Positions 2,163 to 23,088 are shown, counted from the stretch's first letter. The stretch: 64,000 nucleotides of DNA from Candidatus Nanoarchaeia archaeon (GCA_028279745.1 JANQNC010000001.1:594154-658153), one strand, 5' to 3'. Notes: a model not told the origin generated them from the letters alone. Program-made: numbers and translations.

Positions 2163-2244
2163 GATACCCCTCCTCTTTTTTAGCCATCACTCTAAGGACT
2201 TCTGTATTTAAATGTTTGGATAATGAGAATTTATAAAAAAAAGA

Positions 2245-2356
2245 GGACAGCTTCCAGCATTTCCCGTTCATGAGAACAGTACAGTACTGAACGGAGGATT
2301 GCTTAACTTCCGTGTTCGAAATGGGAACGGGTGGAACCAAACCCCTTTGGCCGTCC
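2245..2356 (-). rRNA. 5S ribosomal RNA
   Basis: The reverse complement contains the universal 5S core CCACCCGTTCCCATTTCGAACACGGAAGTTAAGC and a GGGAAATGCTGG helix-IV/V-like segment. Its termini, GGACGGC and GCTGTCC, pair as helix I. It is not linked to 16S or 23S genes. Confidence 0.8.
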
Positions 2357-2378
2357 ATTATTGAGGAATAATAAATCC

Positions 2379-2445: not shown

Positions 2446-4299
2446 GTGGTAATGAGCTTATTCAGCATAATACTGTTTTTTGTATATCTGTGGGGCTTCG
2501 GGTTTTCTGTAACTCGATTTGTGAAACACTCTGAAAACTTCTGGGAACGAAACATAATGTACTTAGGGGTTGGGTTAGGAGTTTATTCTTTGCTTGTTAT
2601 AATCTTAAATTGGATACACGTTCCATTAAACTGGTTCATATTCTTAATCTTAAGTTTAATAGTTCCTGTTGTTTACTTGGTTAAATCTCTAAAGAAAGAA
2701 GAGATAAACTTTGACACTAAAATGTTTAAGTTGACAAAGTCAAACTTAAGGGTTTGGGTGTTGTTAGTTCTAGCTTTTGTATTATTTTTAGTTTATGTCA
2801 AAGGATCATTCAGCTATCCTTGGGTAGAAGATGGAGATCCATTTGAGCATTTACTTGGGATAGAGTATGTTGCAGAAAAACAAACATGGTTCTTTGAAGA
2901 TAATGTACTTGAAAAAAGATCCTTGATGCACTACCTAGAACCTTATCCGCCAACCTATGACGCAATAATAGGAATACAACACCAAGTAACAAACTCAATA
3001 GTCTGGACAACAAAAATATTCAACGTTTTCTTAATAACTTTAGGACACATATTCTTTTACTTCTTTTTAGCAAGGTTTATGGAGAACAAGAATAAAGCGT
3101 TGTTTGCATCATTCTTACTAATCATAATACCTTGTTTCTTAAGCCATTTCATATGGTCTTCAACATTAGCAATTACATTATTCTTCCCAGCATTCTACTG
3201 TCTGGAAATGATAAAGAAAGATAAGAAGTGGATGTATCCATCTATTGCATTAATAACTGCAATAATGATCGCACAACCAACTAATAACGTAATATTTGGA
3301 ATAATGTTTGGCATTTATTGGATAGTAAAATCGATATATGAGAAAAAGTTTTTAGTTCCTGAATTCTTAGTGGGAGTGGTTGGATTGATTGCTTCTCTGA
3401 TAATATACTGGATACCTATACTTCTCAGATTTGGATGGGAGAAGTTCAAAATTGGATTGGTAATAGTCCCAAGTATAGGTTTGGATGTTAATGAAGGTAA
3501 CTTTTACGGGTTAAGTGATTTTATGAGCTCAGCATTGAATAACAAAATAGACAACCCTATTGGATTGGGAATTGTTTTATTTTTACTTGTTGTTGTCTCT
3601 GCAATTATTGCGCTTGTAAGATTGAAAAAGTTAGCAAGCAAGAAAAATTTATGGGTGACAATAACCTTACTTTGGCTGTTGTTTGCATTCTTAGGATTGC
3701 ATCAAGCAAGACTGCCACTTCCATTCACACTATTCGCATATAGGTTCTGGGCAATATTTGCAATACCTGCTGTGATGATAGCTGCAGAAGGTGTTTCTCA
3801 GATAATACAGTTGTGCAAGAAACTTAAGTTTTCACATTATTTTGTAACAATACCTTTATTTGTGTTGTTATTGGCAACTTCGGCTTATCCAAAATATTCA
3901 GTACAAACAGCGATGTGGCCAGCACACGCTTATGGATCTGTAGAGGAAATGATGTCTTACGAATGGGTAAGAAACTCTATACCTCAAAATAGTTATGTAA
4001 TTCCATTATGTAACGACAATGACTGGAGCGACAGAAAAATAATAGGTCTAGATATGATGGTTGAGTTCTGGGATTTAGATCTAAGAGATTTCAGAAGAGG
4101 GTGGGTCAATAAATCAACAGACGAGATCCATACAAGACTGAAAGAAAAAGGATATGAGTTTACAACAATAGACAGTTCATGCGTAACACAAGGATATGAT
4201 CCTGAAGAAGTACAGAAAAAAGCAGAAGAGATGATCGGAACAGGAAAATTCCAACTAATCCATCAAAACACAGGACTTCTTGTCTTTAAGATAATATAA
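2446..4299 (+). CDS. multi-pass membrane protein with C-terminal extracytoplasmic domain (possible GT-C/oligosaccharyltransferase-like)
   Basis: The 617-aa product has about 13 hydrophobic helices followed by a roughly 150-aa soluble C-terminal domain. No diagnostic motif was recognised. Confidence 0.35.
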   Translation: MVMSLFSIILFFVYLWGFGFSVTRFVKHSENFWERNIMYLGVGLGVYSLLVIILNWIHVPLNWFIFLILSLIVPVVYLVKSLKKEEINFDTKMFKLTKSNLRVWVLLVLAFVLFLVYVKGSFSYPWVEDGDPFEHLLGIEYVAEKQTWFFEDNVLEKRSLMHYLEPYPPTYDAIIGIQHQVTNSIVWTTKIFNVFLITLGHIFFYFFLARFMENKNKALFASFLLIIIPCFLSHFIWSSTLAITLFFPAFYCLEMIKKDKKWMYPSIALITAIMIAQPTNNVIFGIMFGIYWIVKSIYEKKFLVPEFLVGVVGLIASLIIYWIPILLRFGWEKFKIGLVIVPSIGLDVNEGNFYGLSDFMSSALNNKIDNPIGLGIVLFLLVVVSAIIALVRLKKLASKKNLWVTITLLWLLFAFLGLHQARLPLPFTLFAYRFWAIFAIPAVMIAAEGVSQIIQLCKKLKFSHYFVTIPLFVLLLATSAYPKYSVQTAMWPAHAYGSVEEMMSYEWVRNSIPQNSYVIPLCNDNDWSDRKIIGLDMMVEFWDLDLRDFRRGWVNKSTDEIHTRLKEKGYEFTTIDSSCVTQGYDPEEVQKKAEEMIGTGKFQLIHQNTGLLVFKII

Positions 4300-5012: not shown

Positions 5013-6305
5013 ATGACTTTGATCAATTATATATTGGACATGTGGCAGAATCCATATGTAAAAAAAACAGTAAAAGGATCTGCAGCAGTGTTCTCAATGG
5101 CATTACTGACCGGGTTAATAGGTTATGTGATTAGGATTGTATTATCAAGACAGTTATCGCTTGAGGATTTTGGGCTTTTTTATGCAGTATTCACTTTTGT
5201 AATCTTCTTTGATATGTTCAAAAACTTAGGTTTAAACCATGCATTGATGAAGTTCATACCTGAGTTTAAAGTAAAGAAAAAATACGGTGAGATAAGGTCA
5301 ATAATCAAATATGTGTTATTTACAAATTTAACAGCAGCAATAGTTATATCTGCAATCTGGTTAATATTTTCAAATTATCTTGCAGCAAACTATTTCAATA
5401 ATGTAATATCCACAGAGTTATTATTCATATTATCAATCTACTTTGTCATAAGTGTGTTTTTAGACACTCTTGCATACAGCTGTTTAGGATTTCAGAGAAA
5501 CCTGTTCTTTTCATTAAGGTTATTTTTAATCAACGTGTTTGTGTTGGCAGGAATTGTTCTGTCTAAAAATTTGGGAGTTATTTCCCCTGCATTATCTTAT
5601 GCTGGCGCAGTTATACTCACAGGGATAGTTTTTGTGTTTCTTTTCAAAAAATCTTTCAAAATACCAAAACGAAAAAGCAAGTTTTCATCAAAACTGTACA
5701 AACAACTTTTCAAATTTGGGATCCCCCTAACTTTAACAATAGCGGGATCTACAATAATCGGCTACATAGATGTTTTAATGCTGACATTCTTCAGAAACTT
5801 AGAAGAGGTGGGAGTGTATAGCGCAGTTTTACCTTCAGCAATATTCTTTTCAGTGATCGGACGAGCAATAGGAACTGTGTTGATTCCAGTTGTATCTGAA
5901 ATGTGGGCAAAAAAGAAATACAAAGAAGTCAATAGAGGAGTAAAACTAATCAATTATTATCTATCATTACTACTTGCACCTTTAGTTATAATATTCTTCA
6001 TATTCTCAAAACAGATAATCACAATACTCTTTGGTGAACAGTTTGCAATAGGACATATAGCTTTCAGAATACTCATAATAGGGGCGGCATTCCATTCACT
6101 GTTCTCAATTAATGGGAACTCAATAACCGCAAGAGGTAAGCCTCAAACCGTGACAAAAATAGTTTTATTTTTAGCAGTTGTTAATATAATAGTAAACTTA
6201 CTGCTAATTCCAAAATACGGGATGGTGGGTGCAGCAATAGCAACCTCTTTGAGTTATTTCTTGGGATTCTTACTGATAATAAGAAAATCAAGGTCACCTA
6301 AGTAA
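5013..6305 (+). CDS. Wzx/MOP-family lipid-linked oligosaccharide flippase (polysaccharide biosynthesis protein)
   Basis: The 430-aa product has about 12 TM helices and the typical N-terminal VKGSAAVFSMALLTGLIGYVIRIVLSRQLSLEDFGLFYAV. Confidence 0.65.
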   Translation: MTLINYILDMWQNPYVKKTVKGSAAVFSMALLTGLIGYVIRIVLSRQLSLEDFGLFYAVFTFVIFFDMFKNLGLNHALMKFIPEFKVKKKYGEIRSIIKYVLFTNLTAAIVISAIWLIFSNYLAANYFNNVISTELLFILSIYFVISVFLDTLAYSCLGFQRNLFFSLRLFLINVFVLAGIVLSKNLGVISPALSYAGAVILTGIVFVFLFKKSFKIPKRKSKFSSKLYKQLFKFGIPLTLTIAGSTIIGYIDVLMLTFFRNLEEVGVYSAVLPSAIFFSVIGRAIGTVLIPVVSEMWAKKKYKEVNRGVKLINYYLSLLLAPLVIIFFIFSKQIITILFGEQFAIGHIAFRILIIGAAFHSLFSINGNSITARGKPQTVTKIVLFLAVVNIIVNLLLIPKYGMVGAAIATSLSYFLGFLLIIRKSRSPK

Positions 6306-7361
6306 AGGTAAGAACCTTTTTAGGAAAGTTTCTGGGCTGTGTTCTTTAAGGACTTTTGTTTTAGCATTCTTGCCAAAAAAAATCAGTTTCTTGAAATTTA
6401 TCTTTCCGCCAGATATGAATGACTCAATCGAGTTCGATAAAGACTCTAGACTGTCTTTTTTGAATATAAACCCGTCTTTTCCGTGAGAGGTGTAACACTT
6501 AGTCCCATTATCAGAAGATAATATTACAGGAATCCCATAAGACATCGCTTCTAGATTTGAATAAGAAGCAGGTTCGTTATTGCTTGGAACAATGTAAAGA
6601 TCTGATTTTAGGAATAGTTTTTCCATATCTTTGTGAGCCACATTTTTATGGATCTTTATATCTATTTTTGCGGAGTTGATCTTCTTCATGACCGCATCAT
6701 AATAAGCGTTTTTGTAAGAAAGAGCGCCTGCAATAGAGAGATTAAACTTTATCTTTGGGTATTTTTCTTGAAGCTGGTTTAATGCTTCAATCAGCAAGAT
6801 ATGATTTTTTCTCTTTTCGTTAAACTTCCCAATGCATAAAATGTTAAGTGTGCTGCTTGTTTTGAAACTTTTAGTTTTTGAGGATTCAATAGGGCAAGGT
6901 ATGTAGTGAACATTCTTTAATTCCTTCTTTCCAGTTATGTAACCTTCTTTCACACTTGCATAGATCATTGTTCTTTTTGGGATAAGCAAGAATTTTACAA
7001 TAGGGTAAGCTAGTTGATATAATGGGTTCTTAAGGTGCTTAATCTTCTGAACGTTAACAATGAACTTTAGGCCTTTTAATTTGCAAAAAAACATAGCTAG
7101 AAAAGTTGACGGCACATTTATCTCTTTGAGTACAACAAAATCGTAATTCTTCTTGATATTCTTCCACAACTGGAAAATGTTTGGAAAAAATAGGCTGTTA
7201 ATTATTCTTGATTTGATCTTTATAGACTTAAATTCAGCTGGAACCTTTCTTTGTCCTATAGATAGAAGAGTTACGTCTGCAACTTTGGACAATGATTTCA
7301 AAGTATGGTAAACATTAGGGTGGTAGTTCTGGATAAAAAGTATCTTCTTTTTGGAATTCAT
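6294..7361 (-). CDS. glycosyltransferase family 4 (GT-B, retaining)
   Basis: The C-terminal EX7E-type motif reads PASYSNLEAMSYGIPVILS, typical of a GT4 fold. Confidence 0.7.
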   Translation of the reverse strand: MNSKKKILFIQNYHPNVYHTLKSLSKVADVTLLSIGQRKVPAEFKSIKIKSRIINSLFFPNIFQLWKNIKKNYDFVVLKEINVPSTFLAMFFCKLKGLKFIVNVQKIKHLKNPLYQLAYPIVKFLLIPKRTMIYASVKEGYITGKKELKNVHYIPCPIESSKTKSFKTSSTLNILCIGKFNEKRKNHILLIEALNQLQEKYPKIKFNLSIAGALSYKNAYYDAVMKKINSAKIDIKIHKNVAHKDMEKLFLKSDLYIVPSNNEPASYSNLEAMSYGIPVILSSDNGTKCYTSHGKDGFIFKKDSLESLSNSIESFISGGKINFKKLIFFGKNAKTKVLKEHSPETFLKRFLPLLR

Positions 7362-7975
7362 TTTTTCTTAAGTATGAAAAGCAGTTGAGGAGCATAAACT
7401 TTTCTAAAGAATGAAAAGAAACGTTCAACAAAGTACTGCCAGTTTGTTTTAGGATCAAAGTAGTAATATACTGAAAGAATTTTTAGGTCAAATCTCTCAG
7501 CCAACTGTTTTAAAGTGTAATAATCATAATAACAAGAATGGTTCTTATTTGGTATAATTTTACCGAATAAAAGATTTCTTAAAACAGTTCTGATTCCAAA
7601 AGCGTTAGGTGTAGATAATGCAATCTTCCCATCTGTTTTTAGGTGTTTTTTGATGTTTTCAATAAAAAGGCCGGCATTTGAAACATGCTCAATGAGTTCA
7701 CCTGCAACGATAACATCAAATTTCTTGTTTAGCTTAAAGGTTTCAGCGTTGCCTGCAACTATATTATAGCCTTTACTGCTTAGTTTCTTTACCTCTTCCT
7801 TAGCCATATCAACACCCGTGACTTCTTTTGCGACTGATTGGATCAATTTATGCAACCAGAAAGGATTTTTTTCAGTAAGGGCTTTATGATCAACACAACC
7901 AATATCTAGAACTACCTTATTCCTGCAAAGAGCCATTATCTTTTCTTCTCTTCTTCTTATTATTGTTGGTTTCAC
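7358..7975 (-). CDS. class I SAM-dependent methyltransferase
   Basis: Motif I reads VLDIGCVDH. Its 4-nt overlaps with the neighbouring genes indicate an operon. Confidence 0.65.
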   Translation of the reverse strand: MKPTIIRRREEKIMALCRNKVVLDIGCVDHKALTEKNPFWLHKLIQSVAKEVTGVDMAKEEVKKLSSKGYNIVAGNAETFKLNKKFDVIVAGELIEHVSNAGLFIENIKKHLKTDGKIALSTPNAFGIRTVLRNLLFGKIIPNKNHSCYYDYYTLKQLAERFDLKILSVYYYFDPKTNWQYFVERFFSFFRKVYAPQLLFILKKK

Positions 7976-9078
7976 TTTCTACAAATATCCACATATAACT
8001 TTTCAGTTTTTGAGACTGTGTGTTTTATATCAAAATATTCTTTAACTCGCTTATAAGCATTGTTGCCTAGTTTAGATGCAAGCTTCTTGTTTTTTATAAG
8101 TCTTATTATTGAATTAGCGGTTTTTTTAGGGGAACTTACTGGGACAAGCGATGCCTCCTTCCCGTTTCTTGCGACTTCAGCATTTTCAGGAATGTCGGTT
8201 GTAATTATTGCTTTTTTCATGGCCATCGCTTCAATCAGACTATTGGATTGGCCTTCTGTAAGTGTTGCGCTTATCCAAATATCAGATATGGAAAGAAGAT
8301 TGGGAATGTCGCCTCTATAACCTAGGAATCTTACGTTCTTAACATTCAACCTTTTAACCAAACTCTTTATCTTTTTTGTTTCATCTTCATAATCTGTGCC
8401 CCCACCAACTACGAGGAAGTTTAAGTCTGTCTCTTTTTGAGCGATCTTCACAGATTTGATCAATGTTGGATAATCTTTTTCTTTTCTTAAGTTTGCAACA
8501 GAGATTAGGGTAGGGATGTTTTTCAGATTAAGTGCTCGTTTAATGGTTGAAGCTTTCTTTGTTGGTTTTAACTTTCGTAAATTAACACCATTATAGATCA
8601 ATTTTATCTTATTCTCCTTAATCCCATACCCCTTAACAAATCTCTTAAGATTTAGTGAGTTCACAGTATGAACATCTACCAGGTGCTGAGTGAACCCATC
8701 AACAAGCCTCTGGAAGGCATTAACTAACTTACCTCTGACTGATGAGATTATTTTGCAATTCGTTCCTTTAGCGGCAAGTCTGCCCACAATATTAGCATGA
8801 TACATGAAACAGTGCAGTATGTCTGGTTTTTTTGTTGTGATTAATCTTCTTAACTTCTTGATTGCTTTGAAGAACTCAAAAGGAGTTTTAACATTAAGGG
8901 TGTAGACAGATATGCCTTTATTTTTCAGATTTGATGCAATCTTGCCACCTTTAATCATGCTACAGACAGAAACATCAAACTTTTTCTTGTCTATACTGTT
9001 AACTAATTTCTCAAGCATGCGTTCTGCTCCACCTACTTGGAGGTCGGTTATGAAATAAAGAATTTTTTTCTTTTTCAT
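7972..9078 (-). CDS. glycosyltransferase family 4
   Basis: The N-terminus carries FITDLQVGGAER and the C-terminus carries EGQSNSLIEAMAMKKAIITTD. Confidence 0.75.
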   Translation of the reverse strand: MKKKKILYFITDLQVGGAERMLEKLVNSIDKKKFDVSVCSMIKGGKIASNLKNKGISVYTLNVKTPFEFFKAIKKLRRLITTKKPDILHCFMYHANIVGRLAAKGTNCKIISSVRGKLVNAFQRLVDGFTQHLVDVHTVNSLNLKRFVKGYGIKENKIKLIYNGVNLRKLKPTKKASTIKRALNLKNIPTLISVANLRKEKDYPTLIKSVKIAQKETDLNFLVVGGGTDYEDETKKIKSLVKRLNVKNVRFLGYRGDIPNLLSISDIWISATLTEGQSNSLIEAMAMKKAIITTDIPENAEVARNGKEASLVPVSSPKKTANSIIRLIKNKKLASKLGNNAYKRVKEYFDIKHTVSKTEKLYVDICRK

Positions 9079-10190
9079 TTTAGTAAGCCCATAAATTTCT
9101 TAACACTTAGCTCCCAGTCAAAATCTTTCACACTTTTCTTTATGCATGTTGATAAGGATTTTCTTAGTTTTTGATCTTTGAGTAAATTTATTATGTTTTT
9201 TCTTAGTGTTGAAGAGTTATTGGGAGTTATGAGGATCCCTTTTCCTTTGTCGCTTAATATTTCTCTTGTTCCACCCACATTAGTAGCAATTATGGGCTTG
9301 CCAACAGCTGCTGCTTCTAAAACAGATGTTGGAAGGCCTTCTGCGTAAGAAGGGTTGACAAATATATCTGTAATGTTTAACACGTTGATTATCTCTTTTT
9401 CTGTATTTTCACCCATGAAAAGAATTTCTTTTCTGTTTTTTGCAAGCTGTTTTAGTTTGGATTCATAAGGACCTTTTCCAACTATCAAGATTTTTATGTT
9501 ATCTATATTTTCTGTTGCTTTTAGCAAGTCTTGGACACCTTTTGCATGAATCAATCTTCCTATAAATGTTATTATCTTTGTATCTTTTGGGATCTTTAGC
9601 TTGGTTTTTAAGTTAGTCTTCACTTTCCTGAATTTTTTAGTGTCAACACCATTATGTATCAGTTTTATGCTCTTAGCACCCATCTTTTTAGAAAAATTAC
9701 AGCACGCTTTGCTTATACCTACAACTTTCCAAGCGTTGCTTATCACTTTCTTTCCGAGAGTCATATCGTATAAAAATGAGAATAGCTCTACTAGCTTATT
9801 AGGATGGTTTACAAATGAATTCCCATGTTCTATATGGATGAGCTTCAAATTATGCTTTTTAGCAAACTTCAAACCCATATTAGAAGTGTAGAAAAACCTT
9901 GTTTGGGTGATGACGCAGTTGTATTTGTTGTTTTCTATCTCTTTCATAAGTTTTTGGAACTGGTTGTTCTTTTTTGGAACTGCATAAGTGCCTTTCAGAA
10001 TATACTTTGAAGGCAATCTGTAAATGTTTATGCCTTTGTACTTTTCTTTTGATTTCTTCTTTTCAGTGTTTAAGGTTACAACATCTATTTTTATCTTTTT
10101 TTTAGCAAGTCTTGTTGTTAATTCAATAAGGTACTTCTCTAGACCTCCCTGAAAAGGGTAAAAATGCGTAGAAAAAAACAAAAGTCTCAT
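9075..10190 (-). CDS. glycosyltransferase family 4
   Basis: The C-terminus carries YAEGLPTSVLEAAAVGKPIIATNVGG. Confidence 0.75.
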   Translation of the reverse strand: MRLLFFSTHFYPFQGGLEKYLIELTTRLAKKKIKIDVVTLNTEKKKSKEKYKGINIYRLPSKYILKGTYAVPKKNNQFQKLMKEIENNKYNCVITQTRFFYTSNMGLKFAKKHNLKLIHIEHGNSFVNHPNKLVELFSFLYDMTLGKKVISNAWKVVGISKACCNFSKKMGAKSIKLIHNGVDTKKFRKVKTNLKTKLKIPKDTKIITFIGRLIHAKGVQDLLKATENIDNIKILIVGKGPYESKLKQLAKNRKEILFMGENTEKEIINVLNITDIFVNPSYAEGLPTSVLEAAAVGKPIIATNVGGTREILSDKGKGILITPNNSSTLRKNIINLLKDQKLRKSLSTCIKKSVKDFDWELSVKKFMGLLK

Positions 10191-10528
10191 TTTTTCAGTG
10201 CAACTTTCCTGACAATCGTCTCTACTCGCTTCTCTGTCTTTCTCACACTCTTATAAAGGTAGAATATTATTATCGTAAAGAACATAAATCCACCAATAAC
10301 AAAAAAGTCAACTGTTCTTTGGATCTCAAGACTTTCCATAATGCCATAAACCACTTTTGGGAAGATGGTTATGAACAAGAAAAAAAGCCAAACCAATATC
10401 CACAATGAAAAATCTTTAACATCGTAGTCTTTCTTTCTAAAACTTAGAAAAGTCAAATAGATCATAATCAACCCAAACAAAATACCTAATATCTGAACTC
10501 CTGGAATCATTTTACAAACCTCCACCAA
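10187..10528 (-). CDS. small membrane protein (DUF2304-like, typically paired with a GT2 enzyme)
   Basis: The 113-aa product has 3 TM helices and lies immediately upstream of the GT2 gene, overlapping it. Confidence 0.4.
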   Translation of the reverse strand: MVEVCKMIPGVQILGILFGLIMIYLTFLSFRKKDYDVKDFSLWILVWLFFLFITIFPKVVYGIMESLEIQRTVDFFVIGGFMFFTIIIFYLYKSVRKTEKRVETIVRKVALKK

Positions 10529-11172
10529 ATCATACTAAACACTATCTTTATACCATCAAAAATTGTTGTTCCTTTATACTTATCAGAATATATCGTTTTT
10601 ATAAATATTTCTTTACATTTAAGCTTATTCTTGCCTGCCAAAGCAATCATTTCAGACTCAACACTATAGCTGCTTGAAGTCCATCTAATCTTCTTATATG
10701 CATCAGCAGTCATAGCACGATATCCTGACTGAGTATCATGAATGTTAATGTTAAATAAAATCTTGCTCATAAAACTGATAAACCAGTTTCCGAATTTGTA
10801 AACTATTGGCATGGTTCTTGTTCTTCTCCTGGATCCGAAGATGATATCTCTCCCTTTAAGCACGTTCAAAAATCTTGGAATTTCGTGAGGGTCGTGCTGA
10901 TTATCAGCATCTAGAAAAACTATGTTGTCTGCTTTATTCCTCACTGCAAATTCTGCACCAGTTTTCATCGCTGCACCTTTACCCAAGTTGATAATGTGCC
11001 TGATAACTTTAACCTTCTCTTCTTTAGCCACTTTGGAAGTGTTGTCTTGACTTCCATCATCCACCACAACGATGTCTTTTGAATATTTCTTAACTTTCTT
11101 AATTACCTTAGTGATGTTTTTTTCCTCATTATGGGCAGGAATTATTACAAAAGTTTTCATCTTAATCAACAA
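10507..11172 (-). CDS. glycosyltransferase family 2 (dolichyl-phosphate hexose synthase-like)
   Basis: The sequence reads [12 protein letters not shown]...[12 protein letters not shown] with a DAD motif. Confidence 0.75.
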
Positions 11173-11857
11173 ATCTGTACTTTACCAGATACCAAATAGC
11201 TAAAACACCATCTGTCCATCTGATCTTTTTACCTTCTTTAAAATCTCTGCACTTGTAATAAACAGGGACTTCTATGATCTTGTGATGTTTCTTTAGAAGT
11301 TTAGCCGTCACTTCGGGCTCAAAATCAAATCGTTTAGATCTTAGTTTTATGTTTTTGATTATTTCAGATTTGAAAACTTTATAACAAGTCTCCATATCAG
11401 TTATCTTACTGAAAAATAAAAGATTTGTTATGAAAGTAAGAAGCCTGTTGCCAAGATAATATGAGAAATACCTTGCACTGTGTTTTTTCATAAACCTGGA
11501 ACCAAAAACAACATCAGTTTTTCCGTCAACAATAGGTTTCAGAAGTTTTGGGTATTCAAAAGGATCATATTCAAGATCTGCATCCTGGATAAGAACGATA
11601 TCTCCTGTTGCTTCCTTAATTCCTCTTCGTAAAGCAGCACCTTTACCTTTGTTTTTTGGTTGAAGTATCAGTCTAGTGTAAAGTTTTCCCTTGTATGGCT
11701 TAAGAAGCTCCACAGTATTGTCTTGACTACCATCATCAACTATAACAATCTCTTTTTTTAGTTTAAGTTTAGATAAGTCTACTTTGTTAACTGTTTTCAA
11801 GACTGTTAAAATGTGCTTCTCTTCATTATAGGTTGGAATTATTATGCTTAGTTTCAT
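11162..11857 (-). CDS. glycosyltransferase family 2 (DPM1/dolichyl-phosphate glycosyltransferase-like)
   Basis: The sequence reads [13 protein letters not shown]...[12 protein letters not shown] with DADLEYDP. Confidence 0.75.
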
Positions 11858-13626
11858 TTTTCGTATACTGTATAATCTGTGAAGTCTCTCTTTATAAATC
11901 CATAGCTTGATAATGCTTCATCTATCTTTGCAGGCGTTTCTATCTCTCTACCTTTATTTGCTATGAAAACAAATACTTTAGCTTGAGAAGATATTTCAAC
12001 CAATCCAGGCAGATCATTAGCCAAGAAAGGATTAAGATATGCTCCAGGAATAAACCTAGAGTAAGTTCTTACCTTCTTAGGTTCAGATTCCTCTTCAAGA
12101 ATGAAAGTATTAAACATAAACGAATCGGGACTGTACTGGAACTGAGGTCTTGAAGGATCAAACTTGATGTAACTTACTGAATACCTGTTTTCCTCAAGTT
12201 TGGCTTTCTTGTATTGTTTTAGTTCTGCTGCTGTGTTAAAAATAGGCATGCTATCTTTATTTTCACCTTTCATCTTTGCAATTAAAGATTTTGTCAGAGA
12301 GATTGCTGCAATCTGAGGTTTTTCGTGAATAAAGTCTCCGCTATCATAACAACATTCTAGATTAACAAGGAAAATAGGGCCTGCGGCAGTTGAAACATAT
12401 TCAAATGCATCCCTGTTAATGTCTCCTTTTGCATGTTTGATCACAGAGGTAAAACCTATGTTAAGCAATAGCAAAAATATTGTGATTAATATAAAAAATA
12501 TCATAAACAAACTCTTCAGATTAATCTTTTTACCAAGCCAAGAAAAGAAAATGTGCATTCCTTTAACCGTAAATAGGGCAACAAAAGGTATAACATGCAT
12601 TATGTATCTTAGCTGTCTGTTTGAAATCAAGAAAGTTGAAAGTATAATTATGGTTAGGACAAGGAAAACCATCTCTTTATTTTCTGATATGAAACTGTCT
12701 TTCTTCTTGAAGAACAGTATGAAAGGAATCAAAGCGAATAGTGCCAGGAAGAATGTTTCAAAAGTTAGCTGTATTGGGAAGTGGAAAAGCCAAGCAAGAC
12801 CAGAACCTCTCCCTTCAGATACCCCCTGCCAAAGAAGCTGCTTGTAAGTCTCGAACTTGATAAGACTAAACCAGACCCAAGGCAAAGTGATTATGAAAGT
12901 AATTACTAATTGAATTATGAACTCTTTTATCAGCTTAAATGGTTGGTGTTTCCTAATGAATAAGAATATTGCATATGCTAAAATGAATGCAGCTGCAAAA
13001 ATAATTGATTGATACCTTATTAGGAAGGCCAGTGCTAAGAATATCCCTCCGATGAATATTGAAATGCTTCCCAGGCTTACTTTTTTGTTGTTTATGTTGA
13101 TTGCAATCCTTTTTGAGCCTTTAATAAATGTGAAATAAAACCACCCCAAGAAGATGTAACTTACTGATGTATCAACCATAGAATCTCTGTTGAATAAGAA
13201 GATGTAAGGAATCAAACTGCATAGGATGACTGTGCAGTAAGCTAGAAGTTTATTGTTGAAAACTTTTTTTGATATAAGATAAAGGAATATTGAACCTATA
13301 ACGAAAAAGAACATCGAAGGCAGTTTTGAAGCGTATTCATTGGGGCCTGCTATAAGGAAGAAAAAAGATTGTGCTATTGCGTGTAAAGGAGGATCATGTA
13401 ATACATAAAAACCTATAGCTTGCTTTTCATTATATGCTTCCATAAAAGATTCAACACCCATAAAATTACCTTGGAGTATGTTTGAAAAATACTTATAGAA
13501 GAAAACACCTTGGTTTGCGTGTCTTGACTGATCATAACCAAGATTAGAACTTATATTAATATGAAAAAGACCCACAAAAATAACTAAAATAAAAAATAAA
13601 ACTAAAAATTCTTTTTTAATCTTCAT
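11854..13626 (-). CDS. GT-C-fold membrane glycosyltransferase-like protein
   Basis: The 590-aa product has a polytopic N-terminal half and a soluble C-terminal domain. Confidence 0.45.
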
Positions 13627-16600
13627 TACCTTTTACCCTCGACCAAAATCAGGTGATATCCGAATTGAGTCTTGACTGGCTGTGAAATTTCTCCCACCTC
13701 TAAGTTAAATGCTGCCTGTTCAAAAGGAGCAACCATCATACCTTTACCGAACCAACCAAGGTCTCCTCCTCTCACTGATGAAGGCCCTTCAGAATATTCT
13801 GTTGCAAGTTCTGCAAAATTCTCTTCAGTTGCATTTTCTCTTATCTCGTTGATAAGGCTTAATGCTTCCTCTTCAGTTCGGTTGTCTAAGTTGATAAGTA
13901 TGTGTCTTGCTTTTATCTCATTCTTTAACACTTCGTTATATGCTGTGCCGTCCCACTTAACCTTGTAGATGTAGATTCCTCGTGCTTTATGGAACAGTTG
14001 GAAATATTTAGAGAATCTGCCTTCAAAGAAGTAAAGGTGTGTGAAAACTGACTCAGTCAGAGCAGGATCAGACACAAGAACTCTTTCGTTTTCCATATCG
14101 AATAGAACATCATAAGGAATTCCTGAATCGTTGTACTCTTCTTTAAGAATTCCTTCTTCAAAGAACATCGTTCCATTCTCCGCAGACACGCCATTAAACC
14201 CTATTTTAGCAAAACCTGCAGGTCTTAAAGAAGAACCGCCAACTACTGCGCCAGTATCTGAGTTTTGAGTAACTAGGTTGAATGTAGCAGACTCATTGAT
14301 TATAGAGACTGAGTCAAGAACCAAATTATTAACTCCTTGTCTTCCAAGGCCAATAGATAATCTGCAATCGTAACCTTCTTGGGTCTGTGAACAACTTTTC
14401 CATCCCCCACTTATGTAAGAAGGCCAAGGACTTATCCACTGATCTGCATTAGTATTTTTTATGTCAAAGTAAACTTTATTTGCGGTATTCTCATCTAACC
14501 CATATCTGTCTTTCAAAAGCTGTATGCCTTCACCAACTTTTAATTTTCTTACTTGGTTGTGCATCTCTGCTTTTGTGAAATTCCATGAACCAAAGTGCGC
14601 CCAAACACCTGACTTACCAATCATATCGCTTGAAACAATATAGTAATTTTCCCAAGGCTCGCAATGTGTACTTTCGATTATAGATGAGGTTTGTTGTGAT
14701 GTGAAACCTTCATCAGATAACAGCTGTGCTGCTTCATCTTCATCTAGAAGAATCAGTTGGTTAAGTATTTCTATAGATTTTACAGTATCGTTAGCTGTGA
14801 AGCTTTCTAGTTTTACTGAAGCATTATTTTGGTCACAGTTAAGCATCCTAAGTATTGCTGCAGATTCTTCTTCTGAATTAGTCAGTAATGATTTACCAAC
14901 CCAATGAATCCTTTTTCCTTGGTCACCACCATCGAAAGTTACTGGTCGTTCAGCAATTGCTTTAAACCAATGACCAAAGTCCCACCAGCTTGTTATAATT
15001 GCATTGTCAACAGTTGAATCTTCCTTGATCGTTATTAAAGAACTGTACCAACCATCATTCATACTTGGTGTTTCTGAAACTGCAACTTGATATCCTCTAA
15101 CTGTAGGGAATAACACAATGAAGAAAATTATTATTACAATCAAAGAGGTCATAACCCACGAAGGCATGTCAAGTTCTTTTTTGGTCCATCTTCTAAGCGG
15201 TTCGTATATTGTTCCAATAAGAACGCCTATAGCTAAAGCGAACCCAGGAACTAAAATTGCACTAAACCTTATACTTTTGATAGCAGCATAAGTTCCTGAA
15301 ACAAACCAGACTGCAAGTAAAATTGCACTAACCATGTAAAAACTCCAAAGTTTGTCTTTCTTTACAAGTTTTAGGATTGCAACAGTGAACAAAGCTACAA
15401 CTCCCCCAATAGCTACAAAGAATAATAAGCCTCCCATAGAGTTCATAACACCTGATATGCTTGAAGGATTAAGCTCTGCAACTGTCGTTAAAACGTTAGG
15501 CCATAAATTAACTTCAGCAACTGCCTTAAGATTTATGAACCATAAAGGTTTTCCTAATGCGCCAACAACACTTGTGAACCCTTCAGAGAATTTTCTTCCA
15601 GATACTAAGAAGATAAGTGAACTGAATATTGCAGTACTTAGGAATATTGTGATCAGTCCTGATAAAGGTGTTGTTATTGAAGATAGTGATTTCTTAATGT
15701 GTTTTCTGTTCTTGATCAGTTGGATAACTAACATGGCTCCTGCAGCAGTCAGTAGGAAAACAAAGTTATACCACCAACCACTCCATAAAGAGTTGTGTAA
15801 AGCTATAATAAATCCTGAACCTGCAAACAGAGCTATCTTTTTCTTAAGATCTTTTGAAGTGTAAGCTTCTAAGAACAGCCAGATTGCCGTTACAGGAAGC
15901 AAGAAGTGATAAGCGTCAGTGTCTGCAAAACCTGCTGTAGTTCTAGTCATCAATGCAGGATGGACTGCTGCCAAAGTTGCTGAAATGAACCCTCCAACAT
16001 TGCCTGCAATCTTTCTTCCCAAAAAGAAAAGAGGGATAACCCCTAAAGTACAGATCAATAACGGAGATAGGAATGCTGCCTGCATAACGGTGTAGTCTTT
16101 GTTGAATATACTCATTATTCGATATATCCAAGATTCAAATAGAGGGTGGAAGTTACCTTCTTGTTCAACCTGCCATCTTCCTTTTTTTAGGATGTCATAA
16201 CTTTTTCCGTCAATCTCTATCTCTCCAATGTGGCCATTGTTAACATAGTTTAAAGCGTGTTTGTACCAAAGATAGGGATCTATAGCTAAAAGATATGTGT
16301 TGCCATTTTCATCCTGATAGAAAGACCTTAAACTATTGGCTTGGTCTTTGATGGCTTGCTCTATAGCATCACCTTGTTCAGCCTTAACCTGCTCAAATTT
16401 TTTCAAAGCTTCAGCTCGTTTTTCTGCAGCAGGAAGGAAAGGGTATTGAGATTCAATCTCAGATTCATAGCTAGATATCAAATTATTATAAAGCTGATCT
16501 CTTACTCTATCTTCAAAACCAGACAGGTAAATTGGTTGAGCTCTTAGAAAGATACTCAAAAATATTGGGATAAGTATCAGTAATATTAAACCAGATTTTT

Positions 16601-16895
16601 TGAAAAAGCTGGTTACTCCTTTAAGGTCAACAGAAACTTCTTCATCTTCAGACTTAGTTTCAACTTTATGTTCTGGTTTTTGTTCTTTGTGCTTTTTAGA
16701 TTTTCCTTTGAAAATTTTCTTGAAATCTATAGTGATCTCTTCCTCATCAGAATCAACTTTTTTATCTTCTTTATGCTTTTCGCTAGCTTCAGAATGCTTT
16801 TTATGCTCTTCAGTACTCAATGTATGACACCCCCAATATTTAGCTAAAATATCGACACTGCATTTATAAAGGTTATGATTGGCATATATAAACAA
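13626..16895 (-). CDS. aglB: archaeal oligosaccharyltransferase AglB (STT3) with C-terminal parvulin (PpiC) PPIase domain
   Basis: It has a polytopic TM domain, a DPYLWY motif in the first external loop, and the catalytic WWDFGHW motif (WWDYG family) at about 14974-14987. The last roughly 95 aa read HILINL...[43 protein letters not shown], a clear parvulin signature. The N-terminal 100 aa are Lys/Glu-rich. The ORF opens on a TTG. Confidence 0.85.
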
Positions 16896-16930: not shown

Positions 16931-17515
16931 ATGAGACGAAGAAACAAACCAAAATTCGGATGGGTCATGCCAATGTTTATAGTAGTAATCATGGTAGGAA
17001 GCACATTTGGAATAATGCTTGGAGGGGACTCTGGAGTCAGCACATACTATAATGATCACAAAATAAAACCTCTAGAAGAAGGTTATGAAATTAAAGCAGG
17101 CGATCTAAAGATATATTCTTCGTTTCATCCGGAACAAGTTGAAAGCATACCTTCACCCGCAATAAATAGTTTTGATTTTATAGGGAAACAAGCAGTCATT
17201 GCATTTGATCCAGAACAAGAAAATCCAATGTATGGAGATTATGCAAGATTCCAGCTTGGAAAATTTTTGAACAGCTTACAAATTCCAGTTGGTGCTGGAG
17301 CAACAAAAGAAGGGAATCATACACTACCTATTGTGAGTTGTGAGAATGCAACAGAAAACACCGTAGTGATTGTCTTTAAAGAAGGAGAGATTACAAAAAT
17401 AGTACAAGAAGATCTTTCATGTTATGTTCTAGAAGCAGCAACACCACAAGATATGATAATGGTGCAGGACAGGTTTAAGTTAACACTTGCGGGCGTTATG
17501 GAAGGATCAAACTAA
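16931..17515 (+). CDS. hypothetical membrane-anchored protein
   Basis: The 194-aa product has a basic N-terminus (RRRNKPKFG) followed by a single TM helix. It is divergent from aglB. Confidence 0.4.
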   Translation: MRRRNKPKFGWVMPMFIVVIMVGSTFGIMLGGDSGVSTYYNDHKIKPLEEGYEIKAGDLKIYSSFHPEQVESIPSPAINSFDFIGKQAVIAFDPEQENPMYGDYARFQLGKFLNSLQIPVGAGATKEGNHTLPIVSCENATENTVVIVFKEGEITKIVQEDLSCYVLEAATPQDMIMVQDRFKLTLAGVMEGSN

Positions 17516-18031: not shown

Positions 18032-20158
18032 TCAGTCTTTTTTCTCTTTTCCTTCTTCATTATCTTCTTTCTTATGCTCTTTCTTTTTATCTTTCTTCTT
18101 CATATCTTCTGCAAGCTCAAGACCTTCTTTCTCTGGCTTCTTTTTCTTCTTTTTAGAATCCTTCTCTTCATTCTTTCTTCTTTTGAACAAGCCCAACAGA
18201 CCTTTCTTCTTCTTAGGCTGATCTTTTAATCGTTCAATAAGCTCTTTTCTAGTCTTAATCTTAGCAAGCTCTCTTGAAAGAACACTGTTCTTAAGAACAT
18301 ACTTAGCCCAGTTAGCAAAATCATTCTTATCTCTGTTTGAGTAACGCCTAAATGTCTTATCATCCATGTACTCCAAAGCTTCAACCATATCCTTAAGGCT
18401 CTTGATTACCGAACCATCATCAAGCTTAAAGTACTGTCCTGGTTTGATAGCATCAAATGCAGAAGATAACTTTCTTTCCAGCTTTTCTTTATCTCTGTTT
18501 CTTACAGCTTTAGCCGCGTGAAGGTGCAAGAATCTTAACTTCATAACCTGCTGAAGCAAAAGCATCAATATGAAAACTCCCGCAGCATAAGCTAATAATA
18601 TGTAAATCTCATTTGAGAGAGTGTAAAGATCAATTCCAAACAACATTGACTTCTTGATAAGCGCTTCACCCATCACAAACGGATTAAAGTCTGCTATCTG
18701 CTTAATGTAATCAGGCATGCTTTCCAAAGGCAAGATAAGATTTGATAGGAATAATAAAACTGAACTAACAGACACTGCAGCAAGCATAGCTGTCTCTTCC
18801 TTATTGAAAACCGTTCCAATAAGCATCCCAAGGAATATGAAAAGAATGACAAGAATTGCAACTATCAATAAAGTAACACCGAAATTGTTTAAGATATTAA
18901 TGTTGAATCCCCAATAAGCGACTGAAAGTATTATTGCAAGCTGAAGAACCAAGATAAATAAAGAAGATATGAAGTTTCCAGTCACAAAAGTTATATTCTT
19001 AACAGGCGCTGTAAAGTTCCTAAAGAAAGCGTTGCTTGTCTTTTCTCTGATCACAATACTGCAAGAAAGCATAACTGAAACAAACATGACTAAAAGTACG
19101 AGCAAAGCAGGAAGTAAGTAGTTCAGATGAGTTGATTCTGTTGTGATGGGTTCCACTTTAGTCTTGATAGGGCTTACAATACTTGAAGCAGAAGTGACAC
19201 CAATACTCTCAATGCTGTTGTTAAGCTCTGTGTTTGCATCCTGCATGGAATTCAAAAGATCAATTGAAGATGATATATCTGAAGAGATAGATGAAGACTT
19301 TGATATAATATTGCTTTGAGAGTTGCTTATCTTACTGACTAAAGAGTCCATATCTGAAACGTCCAAAGCGTCAATGTCTGTTTTCATAGTCTCGAGCTTA
19401 GTTGTTGCAGCAGTAAGAAGATTTTTGATTTCTGTTTCTTGGGAAGATGCCTCAGATGGAAGACTATTTGCTTTTGAAGTAACATCATCAATCAACTTAT
19501 CAAAAGTCTCTGCTAAATCATCTGCAATGTCTTTTAGTGAGGTGACATCTTCAGCTAAAGCATCAAGGTCATTTGAACTAAAAGAGTTCGCGCTTGACCT
19601 TATAGCGGACGTAGTGGATGTAAGCTGATCAGCTTTAGATAAAAGATCGTTAACATCTTCACTCTGGTTTGAGAGATGCCCCCTAGTCAAATCAATCCTA
19701 CTCAGCAAAACATTAGTCATATCAAGACTAAGCTCTGAAGATTTGCCAACCGCAATGTCTGAAACGCTCTTACTAACCATCCATGCTAAGTTAACATTGG
19801 ACTCATCAAGATGGAAAACTATCTCATTCGAGACATCATTGATAATCTCCATATTTGCCGGAAAAACAACACAGGCATGAATAGTCCTGTGCTTTACGTC
19901 AGCAACACACCTTTCAAAATTATCATAAGTGATCGTGTTAAATTCTTCATCCAGCTCAGAAACAAATAAGTTAGAAGTTTCACTGAATGAATCTGAGTAA
20001 ACCCCCACATTAATATTGTATGAGCTTGCGTTATTAAATGCAAGACCAACAAGAAGCATAATAATCAAAGGACCAATTATAACTATGAAAGCGCTCCTTT
20101 TAGATCTAAGCAAAAGCTTCAAATTCTTGCTTACAATCTTCAAAAACTTATTACTCAT
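18032..20158 (-). CDS. ABC-2 type transporter permease with large extracytoplasmic coiled-coil domain and Lys-rich C-terminal tail
   Basis: It has an N-terminal TM helix, a roughly 300-aa Ser/Asp/Leu-rich extracytoplasmic region, 5 C-terminal TM helices and a cytoplasmic KKKDKKKEHKK tail. It overlaps the ATPase gene by 8 nt. Confidence 0.6.
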   Translation of the reverse strand: MSNKFLKIVSKNLKLLLRSKRSAFIVIIGPLIIMLLVGLAFNNASSYNINVGVYSDSFSETSNLFVSELDEEFNTITYDNFERCVADVKHRTIHACVVFPANMEIINDVSNEIVFHLDESNVNLAWMVSKSVSDIAVGKSSELSLDMTNVLLSRIDLTRGHLSNQSEDVNDLLSKADQLTSTTSAIRSSANSFSSNDLDALAEDVTSLKDIADDLAETFDKLIDDVTSKANSLPSEASSQETEIKNLLTAATTKLETMKTDIDALDVSDMDSLVSKISNSQSNIISKSSSISSDISSSIDLLNSMQDANTELNNSIESIGVTSASSIVSPIKTKVEPITTESTHLNYLLPALLVLLVMFVSVMLSCSIVIREKTSNAFFRNFTAPVKNITFVTGNFISSLFILVLQLAIILSVAYWGFNINILNNFGVTLLIVAILVILFIFLGMLIGTVFNKEETAMLAAVSVSSVLLFLSNLILPLESMPDYIKQIADFNPFVMGEALIKKSMLFGIDLYTLSNEIYILLAYAAGVFILMLLLQQVMKLRFLHLHAAKAVRNRDKEKLERKLSSAFDAIKPGQYFKLDDGSVIKSLKDMVEALEYMDDKTFRRYSNRDKNDFANWAKYVLKNSVLSRELAKIKTRKELIERLKDQPKKKKGLLGLFKRRKNEEKDSKKKKKKPEKEGLELAEDMKKKDKKKEHKKEDNEEGKEKKD

Positions 20159-21678: not shown

Positions 21679-23088
21679 CTATTTCTTAAACACTGCAAAG
21701 TATTCAAAAACACTTGAAGTGTTGTATAATAATTCTGAGCTGTCTGAAAGACGATTGAACTCTTCTCTTTTCATCACTTCACATTCTTCATCCACACAAG
21801 GGAAAGTGGAGCTGGAGAAAACAAAAAGATTATAGGAACTAGATTCGTTAAGGAACAGGTCTACGCTTGTAGGCAGATCAAAATATCTCCCATAAAACTT
21901 TTGATCTGTGCAAGGCACAACAATGGCAGTTGTTGAGAAAAGAGAATACTCTTCATCGTAACTGCTGAAAAAACTGCAAAGGTTTGTGTGAGCAGTATCC
22001 ATCTTTCCAAGGAAACCATACCCTAAAATAAATGAGTTAACCAGTATAAATACAACTACTGCGAAGACCAGCAGGTTGCTTATCCACTTAGACTTCCTTT
22101 TTATGAAAAACATGAGCTCATCCAAAGAGTGAGCAACCATTATCGTAATGAAAGGAAGGAACAATAAACCATACCTAAACTCTTTATGAGACAGCCAAGA
22201 AAAGTAGACTGTCAAAAATATTGCCGCAGTGACAAACAAATCAAAAGAAAAATCTTCGTGGAGCTTATTTTTGAAATAAAAGAAAACAAAAGCGATAAGA
22301 AGAATAAAAATCCAGTTATTAAGGAAAAACTGAACAAAGTAATAATAAAACGGCTGGGAATAGATTGCAATATTGTACCTGGTTATGTCTGCGTTAGCTA
22401 TTATAAACGGCCTTATCATTGAGTCAAAGAAGTTTGCAGTCACATCTCTGTAAAAGAAAATATTGAAAATGAAAAATAGTGAAGCAGGAATTGAGTAAAA
22501 GATTATGAATTTTATTATCTTTCTTATCTTAGCTACTTTGAAGATCATGAAAATTAACAAAGGTATCAACATCAAACCTGACGGAAACCTAATCATAAAA
22601 GCCAATCCTGCAAACAAGCCACACAATCCATACTTTTCTTCCTTAAAGAAGTAAATCGACGTAAGTAAAAGAAAAACTGCAGGTATCCCAGTAAGAAGCC
22701 TATGAGAAAAAGCAAAGAATAGAGGGAATGAAGCCAACAGTAAAACAGACCAGATTGCCGTATTTTTGTTAAAAAACTTCTTTGATAACATATAAGTCAT
22801 CGATAATGCACCAATCGCAAATGTAAGAGCTATCATTCTTCCAAATAAAACTATGGGAATATTTAGTTTCCAACCAACACCCAACAGCAGAGGGAATAGT
22901 ATAGGCCTCATCTCAGAATAAAAACCCGTCTGACCTAAAGAGTATATGAATTTAGCAATACCTATGTATTCATATTCATCGAAAAATAAAGAGTTGTAGG
23001 TTGTAAGAAGGATAATTTTTGCAGTAAGAAAAACAGCTAAAATAGCTACAAAAATCCAGTTTTCCTTGAACCAATTATTCTTCTTCAT
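21679..23088 (-). CDS. GT-C-fold membrane glycosyltransferase (PMT_2/ArnT-like)
   Basis: The 469-aa polytopic product has a first-loop FFDEYEY (DE motif) and a SHRLLTG region typical of PMT_2. Confidence 0.55.
   Translation of the reverse strand: MKKNNWFKENWIFVAILAVFLTAKIILLTTYNSLFFDEYEYIGIAKFIYSLGQTGFYSEMRPILFPLLLGVGWKLNIPIVLFGRMIALTFAIGALSMTYMLSKKFFNKNTAIWSVLLLASFPLFFAFSHRLLTGIPAVFLLLTSIYFFKEEKYGLCGLFAGLAFMIRFPSGLMLIPLLIFMIFKVAKIRKIIKFIIFYSIPASLFFIFNIFFYRDVTANFFDSMIRPFIIANADITRYNIAIYSQPFYYYFVQFFLNNWIFILLIAFVFFYFKNKLHEDFSFDLFVTAAIFLTVYFSWLSHKEFRYGLLFLPFITIMVAHSLDELMFFIKRKSKWISNLLVFAVVVFILVNSFILGYGFLGKMDTAHTNLCSFFSSYDEEYSLFSTTAIVVPCTDQKFYGRYFDLPTSVDLFLNESSSYNLFVFSSSTFPCVDEECEVMKREEFNRLSDSSELLYNTSSVFEYFAVFKK

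Follow-up and report, generated by a model that had tools for sequence, protein, structure and literature searches.

A parvulin-type prolyl isomerase domain at the C-terminus of the oligosaccharyltransferase AglB of Woesearchaeota-type archaea

The DNA analysed here is a stretch of 64,000 nucleotides (64 kb; hereafter the window) from a Candidatus Nanoarchaeia archaeon (GCA_028279745.1, JANQNC010000001.1:594154-658153), a tiny member of a Woesearchaeota-type DPANN lineage. We focus on one open reading frame (ORF) of its minus strand, which heads a bona fide N-glycosylation operon and encodes the oligosaccharyltransferase (OST) AglB continued at its C-terminus by a parvulin-type peptidyl-prolyl isomerase (PPIase) domain. 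A preliminary description of the window had proposed such a canonical AglB running without a stop into a parvulin-type domain, and the ORF, the Pfam and NCBIfam matches and a structural model all bore this out. The features of the locus are collected in Table 1.

Results

AglB and a parvulin domain are encoded in one reading frame

In the ORF listing of the window, the AglB body passes into the tail in the same frame, without a stop or a frame change. The interruption that, according to the preliminary description, would have undone the fusion was thus not found, and there is a single ORF of 1089 aa. Pfam searches of the translated protein gave matches to both halves, every one of them above the curated cut-off. 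In the body, STT3 (PF02516) was matched over residues 183-568 (E 2.5e-42, 146.3 bits vs. a cut-off of 24.5) and the STT3/PglB/AglB core (PF21436) over residues 634-732 (E 1.4e-5, 26.1 vs. 23 bits). In the tail, the matches were to Rotamase_3 (PF13616) over residues 990-1088 (E 2.6e-28, 99.3 vs. 22.5 bits) and Rotamase (PF00639) over residues 998-1086 (E 1.3e-24, 87.4 vs. 21.7 bits). PF02516 for the body and PF00639/PF13616 for the tail are the families that had been named beforehand for a profile search. NCBIfam assigned the body to archaeal STT3 and PglB, while in the tail only the parvulin portions of PrsA, SurA, NifM and PpiC were matched. With 72.9 bits vs. a cut-off of 450, the protein is not a member of the archaeosortase-A-associated AglB subfamily TIGR04154. 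A phmmer search of the whole protein against the PDB sequences returned parvulins only and no AglB match; the AglB relationship is therefore one that is seen by profile and fold search.

The start codon of the called ORF is probably misplaced. The called TTG (16895) lies just 35 bp from the divergent gene at 16931. Another TTG, at 16820, has a ribosome-binding-like GGGGGTG 6 nt upstream and a TATA-like TTTATAAA about 45 bases upstream (at about 16862-16869), and the N-terminus that begins there resembles the N-termini of the homologues. For these reasons, namely the two upstream elements, the narrow intergenic gap and the homologue-like N-terminus, we prefer the start at 16820; the called one would then be 75 nt too far upstream and the actual protein would be about 1064 aa long. 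A scan for promoters and terminators of bacterial type gave results at chance level, the scan model being bacterial and unsuited to archaea.

The body is an AglB with an invariant catalytic set

By the sequence and fold criteria tested, the body is an AglB/STT3 oligosaccharyltransferase (family GT66). For its comparison we used the 120 best homologues, which are 33-51% identical and belong to Woesearchaeota or Nanoarchaeota wherever they are named. In the alignment of these proteins the whole catalytic set, composed of D206, D325/D327, E474, WWDFG and D757/K761, is invariant. The DPY loop and the WWDFGHW motif, both quoted in the preliminary description, are indeed present. Invariant are also Cys687, Cys745 and Cys844 of the C-terminal AglB domain, and the prolines P207, P466, P550, P597, P610 and P825 are nearly so. 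Based on its motifs and on the operon, the AglB of the window is predicted to transfer a glycan to the Asn of N-x-S/T sequons.

An AlphaFold2 model of the fusion protein, computed with the alignment of the 120 homologues as input, had a mean predicted local distance difference test score (pLDDT) of 88.8 and a predicted template modelling score (pTM) of 0.84, with disorder confined to the first 89 residues and one loop. Foldseek searches with the model retrieved PglB (TM-score 0.68-0.69, normalised to the target), Archaeoglobus fulgidus AglB, and yeast and human STT3, STT3A/B among them.

The disordered N-terminal tail of AglB has a motif of its own, in which acidic residues are followed by basic ones ([DE][DE]-I/V-x-I/V-D-F/L-x-K-I/V-K..FKKK). 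It occurs there in two copies (16710-16742 and 16611-16643, minus strand) and, by the strict pattern, in one to three copies in 61 of the 120 homologues, including P0005, P0007, P0010 and P0033; the consensus among homologues reads ExxIDFxKIKxxFKxK. No other ORF of the 64-kb window contains the motif. A role in binding to the ribosome, the translocon or the membrane is conceivable.

The tail is a parvulin with a conserved active site

The tail contains the parvulin motifs HILIN (at 998), GGDLGWF (at 1043) and FGYHLI (at 1078), as the preliminary description had stated. Its active-site residues are H998, D1045, T1076 and H1081, with M1054 and F1058 forming the hydrophobic pocket. Among the 39 homologues that carry the same fusion (see below), H998 was conserved in 39/39, H1081 in 38/39 and Thr or Ser at 1076 in 39/39; for the pocket, the counts were 37/39 (M1054) and 39/39 (F1058). 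The two histidines, T/S1076 and the pocket residues thus hardly vary, which is the pattern that a working isomerase would show, and the tail is predicted to function as one.

In the structural model, the tail was resolved with pLDDT values of 90-98 into strands (E) and helices (H) E994-1002, H1008-1021, H1027-1034, H1038-1042, E1045-1049, H1056-1064, E1074-1076 and E1079-1088, i.e., in the beta-alpha3-beta-alpha-beta2 order of parvulins. Foldseek superposed it on PrsA, Par14, Pin1 and NmPin at 2.2-3.1 A, with 38-46% identity to PrsA, Par14 and NmPin. The closest solved sequences are those of NmPin and CsPinA (E 1e-20), with PrsA and SurA next. On all the sequence and fold criteria applied, the domain belongs to the parvulin family.

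The parvulin domain is predicted to lie outside the cell

The last transmembrane (TM) helix of the protein comprises residues 581-599. Beyond it, the highest Kyte-Doolittle value of any 19-mer is 1.04 and no segment of membrane-level hydrophobicity follows, so residues 600-1089 should all be on one side of the membrane. To our knowledge, all OSTs with solved structures have the WWD-bearing domain on the extracytoplasmic or lumenal side. The distribution of N-x-S/T sequons points in the same direction: all eight are found after residue 600, with 0 of 21 Asn residues in a sequon before that point vs. 8 of 32 after it (Fisher p = 0.016). Two of these lie in the parvulin itself, at N1005 (13875-13883) and N1021 (13827-13835). 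Sequons were detected in 30 of the 39 fused parvulins (mean 1.33 per domain) vs. 6 of 84 free relatives (mean 0.07; p = 3e-16), and those of the fused domains recur at positions 1005 and 1021-1023. The fused domains also differ in net charge (-5.7 vs. +1.25 for the free relatives) and have no lysine patch of the NmPin type. As the parvulin should share the side of the WWD pocket, and as the fused domains are rich in sequons, its location is predicted to be extracytoplasmic, which supports the placement given in the preliminary description. The invariant C687, C745 and C844 would fit an external location as well.

The fusion recurs among related archaea

A C-terminal parvulin on AglB was present in 39 of the 120 closest homologues. 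We also evaluated the 80 best-matching loci in GTDB species-representative genomes, 76 of which had a complete gene; 26 of these 76 encode the AglB-parvulin architecture. The window genome itself stands outside the GTDB species representatives, and its best match there is 41% identical. The occurrence of the same fusion in relatives, which the preliminary description had left to a survey, is thus established: it is widespread in Woesearchaeota-type metagenome-assembled genomes and not unique to the window genome. A protein identical to that of the window (P0001) is found in NCBI on a 1.30-Mb contig, and another fusion protein (P0016) is identical on at least 12 contigs from JGI, ENA, NCBI and Logan.

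To this we added a search with residues 930-1089, which span the junction, against a library of 1.84 billion representative proteins. Among the top 150 matches, about 25 were single-stretch, C-terminal and junction-spanning, the rest being largely multi-parvulin proteins resembling SurA or PpiD. The proteins with junction-spanning matches are about 1000-1130 aa long, are matched at their C-termini and come from many 50%-identity clusters. A search with the parvulin domain by itself yielded mostly free parvulins of ~92 aa and short fragments in place of long fusions, a consequence of its word-index selection of candidates; it served the question of origin and not counts. Because the frame is continuous and the same junction recurs across many independent assemblies, the fusion is a real gene; for the family, a chimeric assembly or an overlooked frameshift can be excluded, and for the window instance either is very unlikely.

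Acidic low-complexity C-terminal tails are common in the AglB proteins that have no PPIase (P0116, P0118, P0094, P0028). Those of P0116 and P0118 are rich in N-x-S/T and are possibly glycosylated stalks. Many of the related contigs (L004, L008-L010, L012 and others) are titled "uncultured Methanosarcinales archaeon" (third-party annotation co-assembly bins) and have an AglB of Woesearchaeota type; the taxonomy in these titles is probably unreliable.

An FKBP domain occupies the same position in other AglB proteins

In 13 of the 120 homologues (P0033, P0038, P0040, P0046, P0053, P0062, P0069, P0081-P0083, P0088, P0091, P0092) and in 4 of the 76 species representatives (four loci among L004-L083), an FKBP_C domain was found at the same C-terminal position of AglB. 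FKBP is a prolyl isomerase that is structurally unrelated to parvulin. In a neighbour-joining tree of the AglB core, some FKBP-bearing proteins are sisters of parvulin-bearing ones, which suggests that the two domains have been swapped on AglB. That two unrelated PPIase folds occupy the same place provides the strongest argument that the selected property is one common to PPIases, i.e., the binding and isomerisation of Xaa-Pro in unfolded chains.

The mean p-distance of the parvulin (0.50 vs. 0.56 for the AglB core) indicates that it is at least as conserved as the core, and the pairwise distances of the two are correlated (Mantel r 0.51, reached in 0/5000 permutations). As the divergence of the parvulin tracks that of the AglB core, the two have been inherited together under selection. 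The fused domain descends from NmPin-like archaeal parvulins. The fused parvulins cluster together, apart from 84 free ones of ~92 aa, which are their nearest relatives at 50-60% identity. On the AglB-core tree the fusion is patchy, with 26 parsimony changes, a number that is indicative given the crude neighbour-joining tree. The simplest history would be that one archaeal parvulin of the PinA/PpiC type was fused to AglB and was then inherited vertically together with it, with many losses. Among the closest parvulins, none was seen fused to a membrane protein other than AglB.

The fusion gene heads an N-glycosylation operon

The stop codon of the fusion gene overlaps the ATG of the next gene, which encodes a PMT_2-type glycosyltransferase of the GT-C fold (TAATG, 13624-13628), suggestive of translational coupling of the two. 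A homologue of this second gene stands beside AglB in 1 of the 80 related loci (L007). The 194-aa product of the divergent neighbour (16931-17515) was considered as a conserved partner and rejected; it has no Pfam domain, and no homologue of it is encoded beside AglB in the 80 loci.

Table 1. Features of the AglB-parvulin gene and of the surrounding glycosylation cluster (window coordinates)
Feature	Coordinates	Strand	Basis or remark
AglB-parvulin fusion ORF as called	13626-16895	-	single ORF, 1089 aa plus stop
TTG that is probably the actual start codon (residue 26 of called ORF)	16818-16820	-	upstream elements
Cytoplasmic, disordered, charged N-terminal tail (residues 26-89)	16629-16820	-	pLDDT below 50
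Membrane-spanning GT-C core of AglB, including external loops EL1 and EL5 (residues 91-607)	15075-16625	-	PF02516, hydrophobic segments, model helices, fold match
EL1 motif AIDPY (204-208), D206 invariant	16272-16286	-	motif and alignment
DxD motif D325-T-D327 (DTDAY from 325), both Asp invariant	15915-15923	-	motif and alignment
EL5 motif TVAELN (471-476), TIXE/SVSE-type, E474 invariant	15468-15485	-	motif and alignment
WWDFGHW (637-643), motif binding the +2 Ser/Thr of the sequon	14967-14987	-	motif in 120/120 homologues, WWDFG (637-641) invariant
DK motif DMIGK (757-761), D757 and K761 invariant	14613-14627	-	motif and alignment
Soluble C-terminal AglB domain, predicted to be extracytoplasmic (residues 608-979), six N-x-S/T sequons	13959-15074	-	alignment, model, sequon count
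Linker (residues about 980-989)	13929-13958	-	model; 10-40 aa, variable across homologues
Parvulin (PpiC-type) PPIase domain (residues 990-1089)	13629-13928	-	Pfam, NCBIfam, model, fold search
PMT_2-type GT-C glycosyltransferase, next gene in operon	11854-13626	-	Pfam
GT2	11162-11857	-	glycosylation cluster
GT2	10507-11172	-	glycosylation cluster; homologue follows AglB in 66/80 related loci
GT4	9075-10190	-	glycosylation cluster
GT4	7972-9078	-	glycosylation cluster
Methyltransferase	7358-7975	-	glycosylation cluster
GT4	6294-7361	-	glycosylation cluster
Wzx/MurJ-type flippase gene flanking the cluster	5013-6305	+	

Two large ORFs of the plus strand probably encode huge glycosylated surface proteins and are candidate clients of AglB. 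The larger (32662-42660), encoded 16 kb away, specifies a protein of 3332 aa with a signal peptide, 122 sequons, 157 Pro and 52 Cys, in which no Pfam domain scored above threshold. It is preceded by an ORF of 798 aa (30273-32669) with 23 sequons and a weak dockerin-like match. We speculate that the 3332-aa protein is the kind of client that needs help with both glycosylation and folding.

Outside the cluster, the window has further genes for membrane glycosyltransferase-like proteins of GT-C type, at 21679-23088 (minus strand, Glyco_transf_22/PMT_2) and 2446-4299 (plus strand, DUF6541). In an ABC-2 permease (18032-20158, minus strand), a long internal stretch is rich in Ser/Asp and the C-terminal tail is rich in Lys; membrane proteins of the window seem commonly to bear charged low-complexity tails. 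A 5S rRNA gene was located at 2242-2358 (minus strand, 69 bits), and no tRNA genes were found in the whole 64 kb.

Discussion

Proposed function and alternatives

We consider it fairly probable that the fused parvulin functions much as PrsA does, as an extracytoplasmic foldase or chaperone that is tethered to the membrane and held at the site of N-glycosylation. In the proposed sequence of events, AglB would move a lipid-linked glycan, made by the products of the downstream operon, onto the Asn of N-x-S/T in freshly translocated chains, and the parvulin, on its 10-residue linker, would stay within a few nanometres of the same membrane site. There it would bind chains that are still unfolded and isomerise Xaa-Pro bonds, or at least hold the chains, in a compartment free of ATP. 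In effect it would work like PrsA of Gram-positive bacteria, with AglB as the anchor, and folding help would thereby be co-localised with glycosylation. The domain presumably has PPIase activity and acts on AglB clients, and we hypothesise that folding and glycosylation are functionally coupled. Given the many AglB proteins without a PPIase, the module is an accessory of AglB; that the two are functionally linked is made likelier by the convergent FKBP fusions and by AglB being the exclusive partner.

A more far-reaching reading is offered tentatively, as possible rather than probable. In Woesearchaeota-type DPANN archaea, the PPIase module (a parvulin gained once and swapped for FKBP in some branches) may be a selected, integral OST accessory that couples the folding state of surface proteins mechanistically to their N-glycosylation.

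Several observations weigh against the foldase proposal. D1045, the equivalent of Cys113 in Pin1 and Asp74 in Par14, is Asp in only 22 of the 39 fusions; the objection to activity is a weak one, because the corresponding D42C variant of NmPin keeps its full catalytic efficiency (PMC4922055). Furthermore, a PPIase fold beside an OST need not be catalytic, since the ligand site of FKBP11 at the human OST translocon is buried and the authors of that work argue against an isomerase role (PMC12804085). AglB occurs without any PPIase in 46 of the 76 related species (61%), hence AglB as such can function without the module, and in the 80 loci, which were searched for a split version, no PPIase gene was located within 4 kb of a PPIase-less AglB. 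In two candidate clients, proline was not enriched near sequons (0.044 vs. 0.045, p = 0.95), which leaves a sequon-proximal mechanism without support.

Alternatively, the module may be a substrate-presenting holdase that keeps unfolded Pro-containing segments flexible or tethered, which would bring more sequons within reach of AglB. It would then raise the efficiency of glycosylation and not the rate of folding, like Ost3/Ost6, with isomerisation secondary or absent. Two unrelated PPIase folds at the identical position of AglB would be explained by a shared property such as the binding of unfolded Pro-containing chains, and the variability of D1045 and the specificity of the closest parvulins for AglB as fusion partner are likewise consistent with it. 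There are also precedents, as the human FKBP11 site serves protein binding at the OST-A translocon (PMC12804085) and the parvulin domains of PpiD and SurA are chaperone modules (background in PMC4922055). Yet the near-invariance of both histidines, T/S1076 and the hydrophobic pocket is that of a working isomerase, and the missing enrichment of proline around the sequons of two candidate clients does not speak for a holdase either; we regard this explanation as rather unlikely.

AglB could also be an anchor of convenience: the lineage would need an extracellular foldase on a membrane tether, and AglB would be no more than a plentiful membrane protein whose C-terminus is external, with no functional link to glycosylation. 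The absence of the module from AglB in 61% of the related species and its patchy presence on the AglB tree, with the 26 changes mentioned above, would agree with this, and parvulins elsewhere are anchored by lipid, TM helix or lysine patch (PMC4922055). On the other hand, parvulin and FKBP are both found on AglB and at the same end, no parvulin was seen on a different membrane protein among the nearest relatives, and the parvulin co-diverges with the AglB core. A merely convenient anchor is in our opinion quite improbable.

Action in cis, in which the PPIase would serve AglB itself (e.g., P207 in EL1, P466 in EL5 or the C-terminal domain) by folding it or gating its catalytic cycle, has the short linker and the several nearly invariant AglB prolines in its favour; as the same prolines are kept in many PPIase-less AglBs and there is no known precedent, its chances are slim. 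Finally, nothing was found in favour of an artefact joining two genes by assembly chimera or by a missed frameshift or stop, and we dismiss it in view of the continuous frame, the junction shared by 39 distinct clusters of proteins and by the genomes of 26 species representatives, the one fusion protein recovered at least 12 times from independent data sets, and the single-stretch matches of the junction-spanning query in many 50%-identity clusters.

Novelty and significance

The preliminary description had known of no report of an STT3/AglB-PPIase fusion but had gone too far in regarding a foldase as otherwise lacking outside the cell: in Nitrosopumilus, the active parvulin NmPin has been reported from the outer face of the membrane, and S-layer proteins have been proposed as its clients (PMC4922055). 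In keeping with the former claim, a full-text literature search, with most subscription-journal papers outside its scope, yielded no description of an AglB/STT3-PPIase fusion. A recent review and a research article on archaeal N-glycosylation make no mention of an isomerase or an AglB fusion; an external prolyl isomerase or foldase likewise goes unmentioned in a major review on the biogenesis of archaeal surfaces. In public databases, the fusion proteins carry automatic names, e.g., "peptidylprolyl isomerase" or "STT3 domain-containing protein". AglB-PPIase is thus a real and recurrent domain architecture that combines two known kinds and is apparently undescribed.

After export, archaeal proteins have to fold in a compartment that has no ATP. 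An OST with its own PPIase, in two convergent forms, provides a concrete and testable link of N-glycosylation to extracellular folding, and parallels the FKBP11 finding at the human OST-A translocon (PMC12804085). It also shows a design, provided by nature, by which single-subunit OSTs could be engineered so as to glycosylate recombinant glycoproteins better or improve their folding. As regards the biology of DPANN archaea, it suggests that they invest heavily in the maturation of very large, sequon-rich surface proteins, e.g., the 3332-aa protein. If the module is indeed an integral OST accessory with this coupling role, AglB-PPIase would be a one-polypeptide archaeal counterpart of the folding accessories of the eukaryotic OST (Ost3/6, FKBP11). 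It would then also be the first folding-catalyst system outside the archaeal cytoplasm to be defined with a known partner.

Comparison with known systems

The body of the protein has the same fold and the same catalytic motifs as A. fulgidus AglB and Campylobacter PglB, the solved single-subunit OSTs. These have no PPIase domain, and the window protein additionally differs from them by its long, charged cytoplasmic N-terminal tail with the repeated motif. At an OST, the closest parallels in concept are human FKBP11, taken up below, and Ost3/Ost6 (TUSC3/MagT1), oxidoreductase subunits with a folding-catalyst fold that are attached to the STT3 enzyme and modulate substrate folding to favour glycosylation; unlike the parvulin of the AglB fusion, the latter have a thioredoxin fold, use disulfide chemistry and are separate subunits.

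PrsA of Bacillus subtilis and other Gram-positives, a foldase for secreted proteins, has its parvulin tethered to the cytoplasmic membrane on the outer, ATP-free side, where the parvulin of the fusion protein is predicted to lie as well. PrsA is also the best NCBIfam match of the tail, and the modelled tail superposes on it at 2.2-2.4 A with 42-46% identity. PrsA, however, is a dimeric lipoprotein, and its parvulin sits within an N/C chaperone domain. The window protein has no such domain, reaches whole-protein scores of 65-68 bits vs. cut-offs of 343-361 and is archaeal, and its anchor is a glycosyltransferase of presumably 13-TM type. Taking the PrsA, SurA and PpiC equivalogs together, scores were 51-68 bits vs. 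cut-offs of 127-394, with the parvulin part alone matching, and Pfam detected no SurA_N-type domain in the fusion protein. There is neither a signal peptide with a lipobox of its own nor an N-terminal TM anchor preceding a chaperone; instead, the parvulin is located C-terminally to a complete AglB. The fusion protein thus falls outside the PrsA, SurA and PpiD families.

The closest solved sequences to the fused domain, NmPin and CsPinA (PDB 2m08, 2rqs), are single-domain archaeal parvulins. NmPin is a free 91-aa protein that resides on lipids through its lysine patch, whereas the fused domains are acidic, sequon-bearing and covalently attached to AglB. The human FKBP11 (PDB 9n9j; PMC12804085) is a membrane-anchored protein of PPIase fold on the lumenal side, beside STT3A at the Sec61/OST-A translocon. 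Its association is non-covalent and dependent on ribosome and substrate, its ligand site is buried by CCDC134, and the OST that it accompanies is the multi-subunit eukaryotic one (PMC12804085). The FKBP-bearing relatives of the window AglB constitute its covalent parallel.

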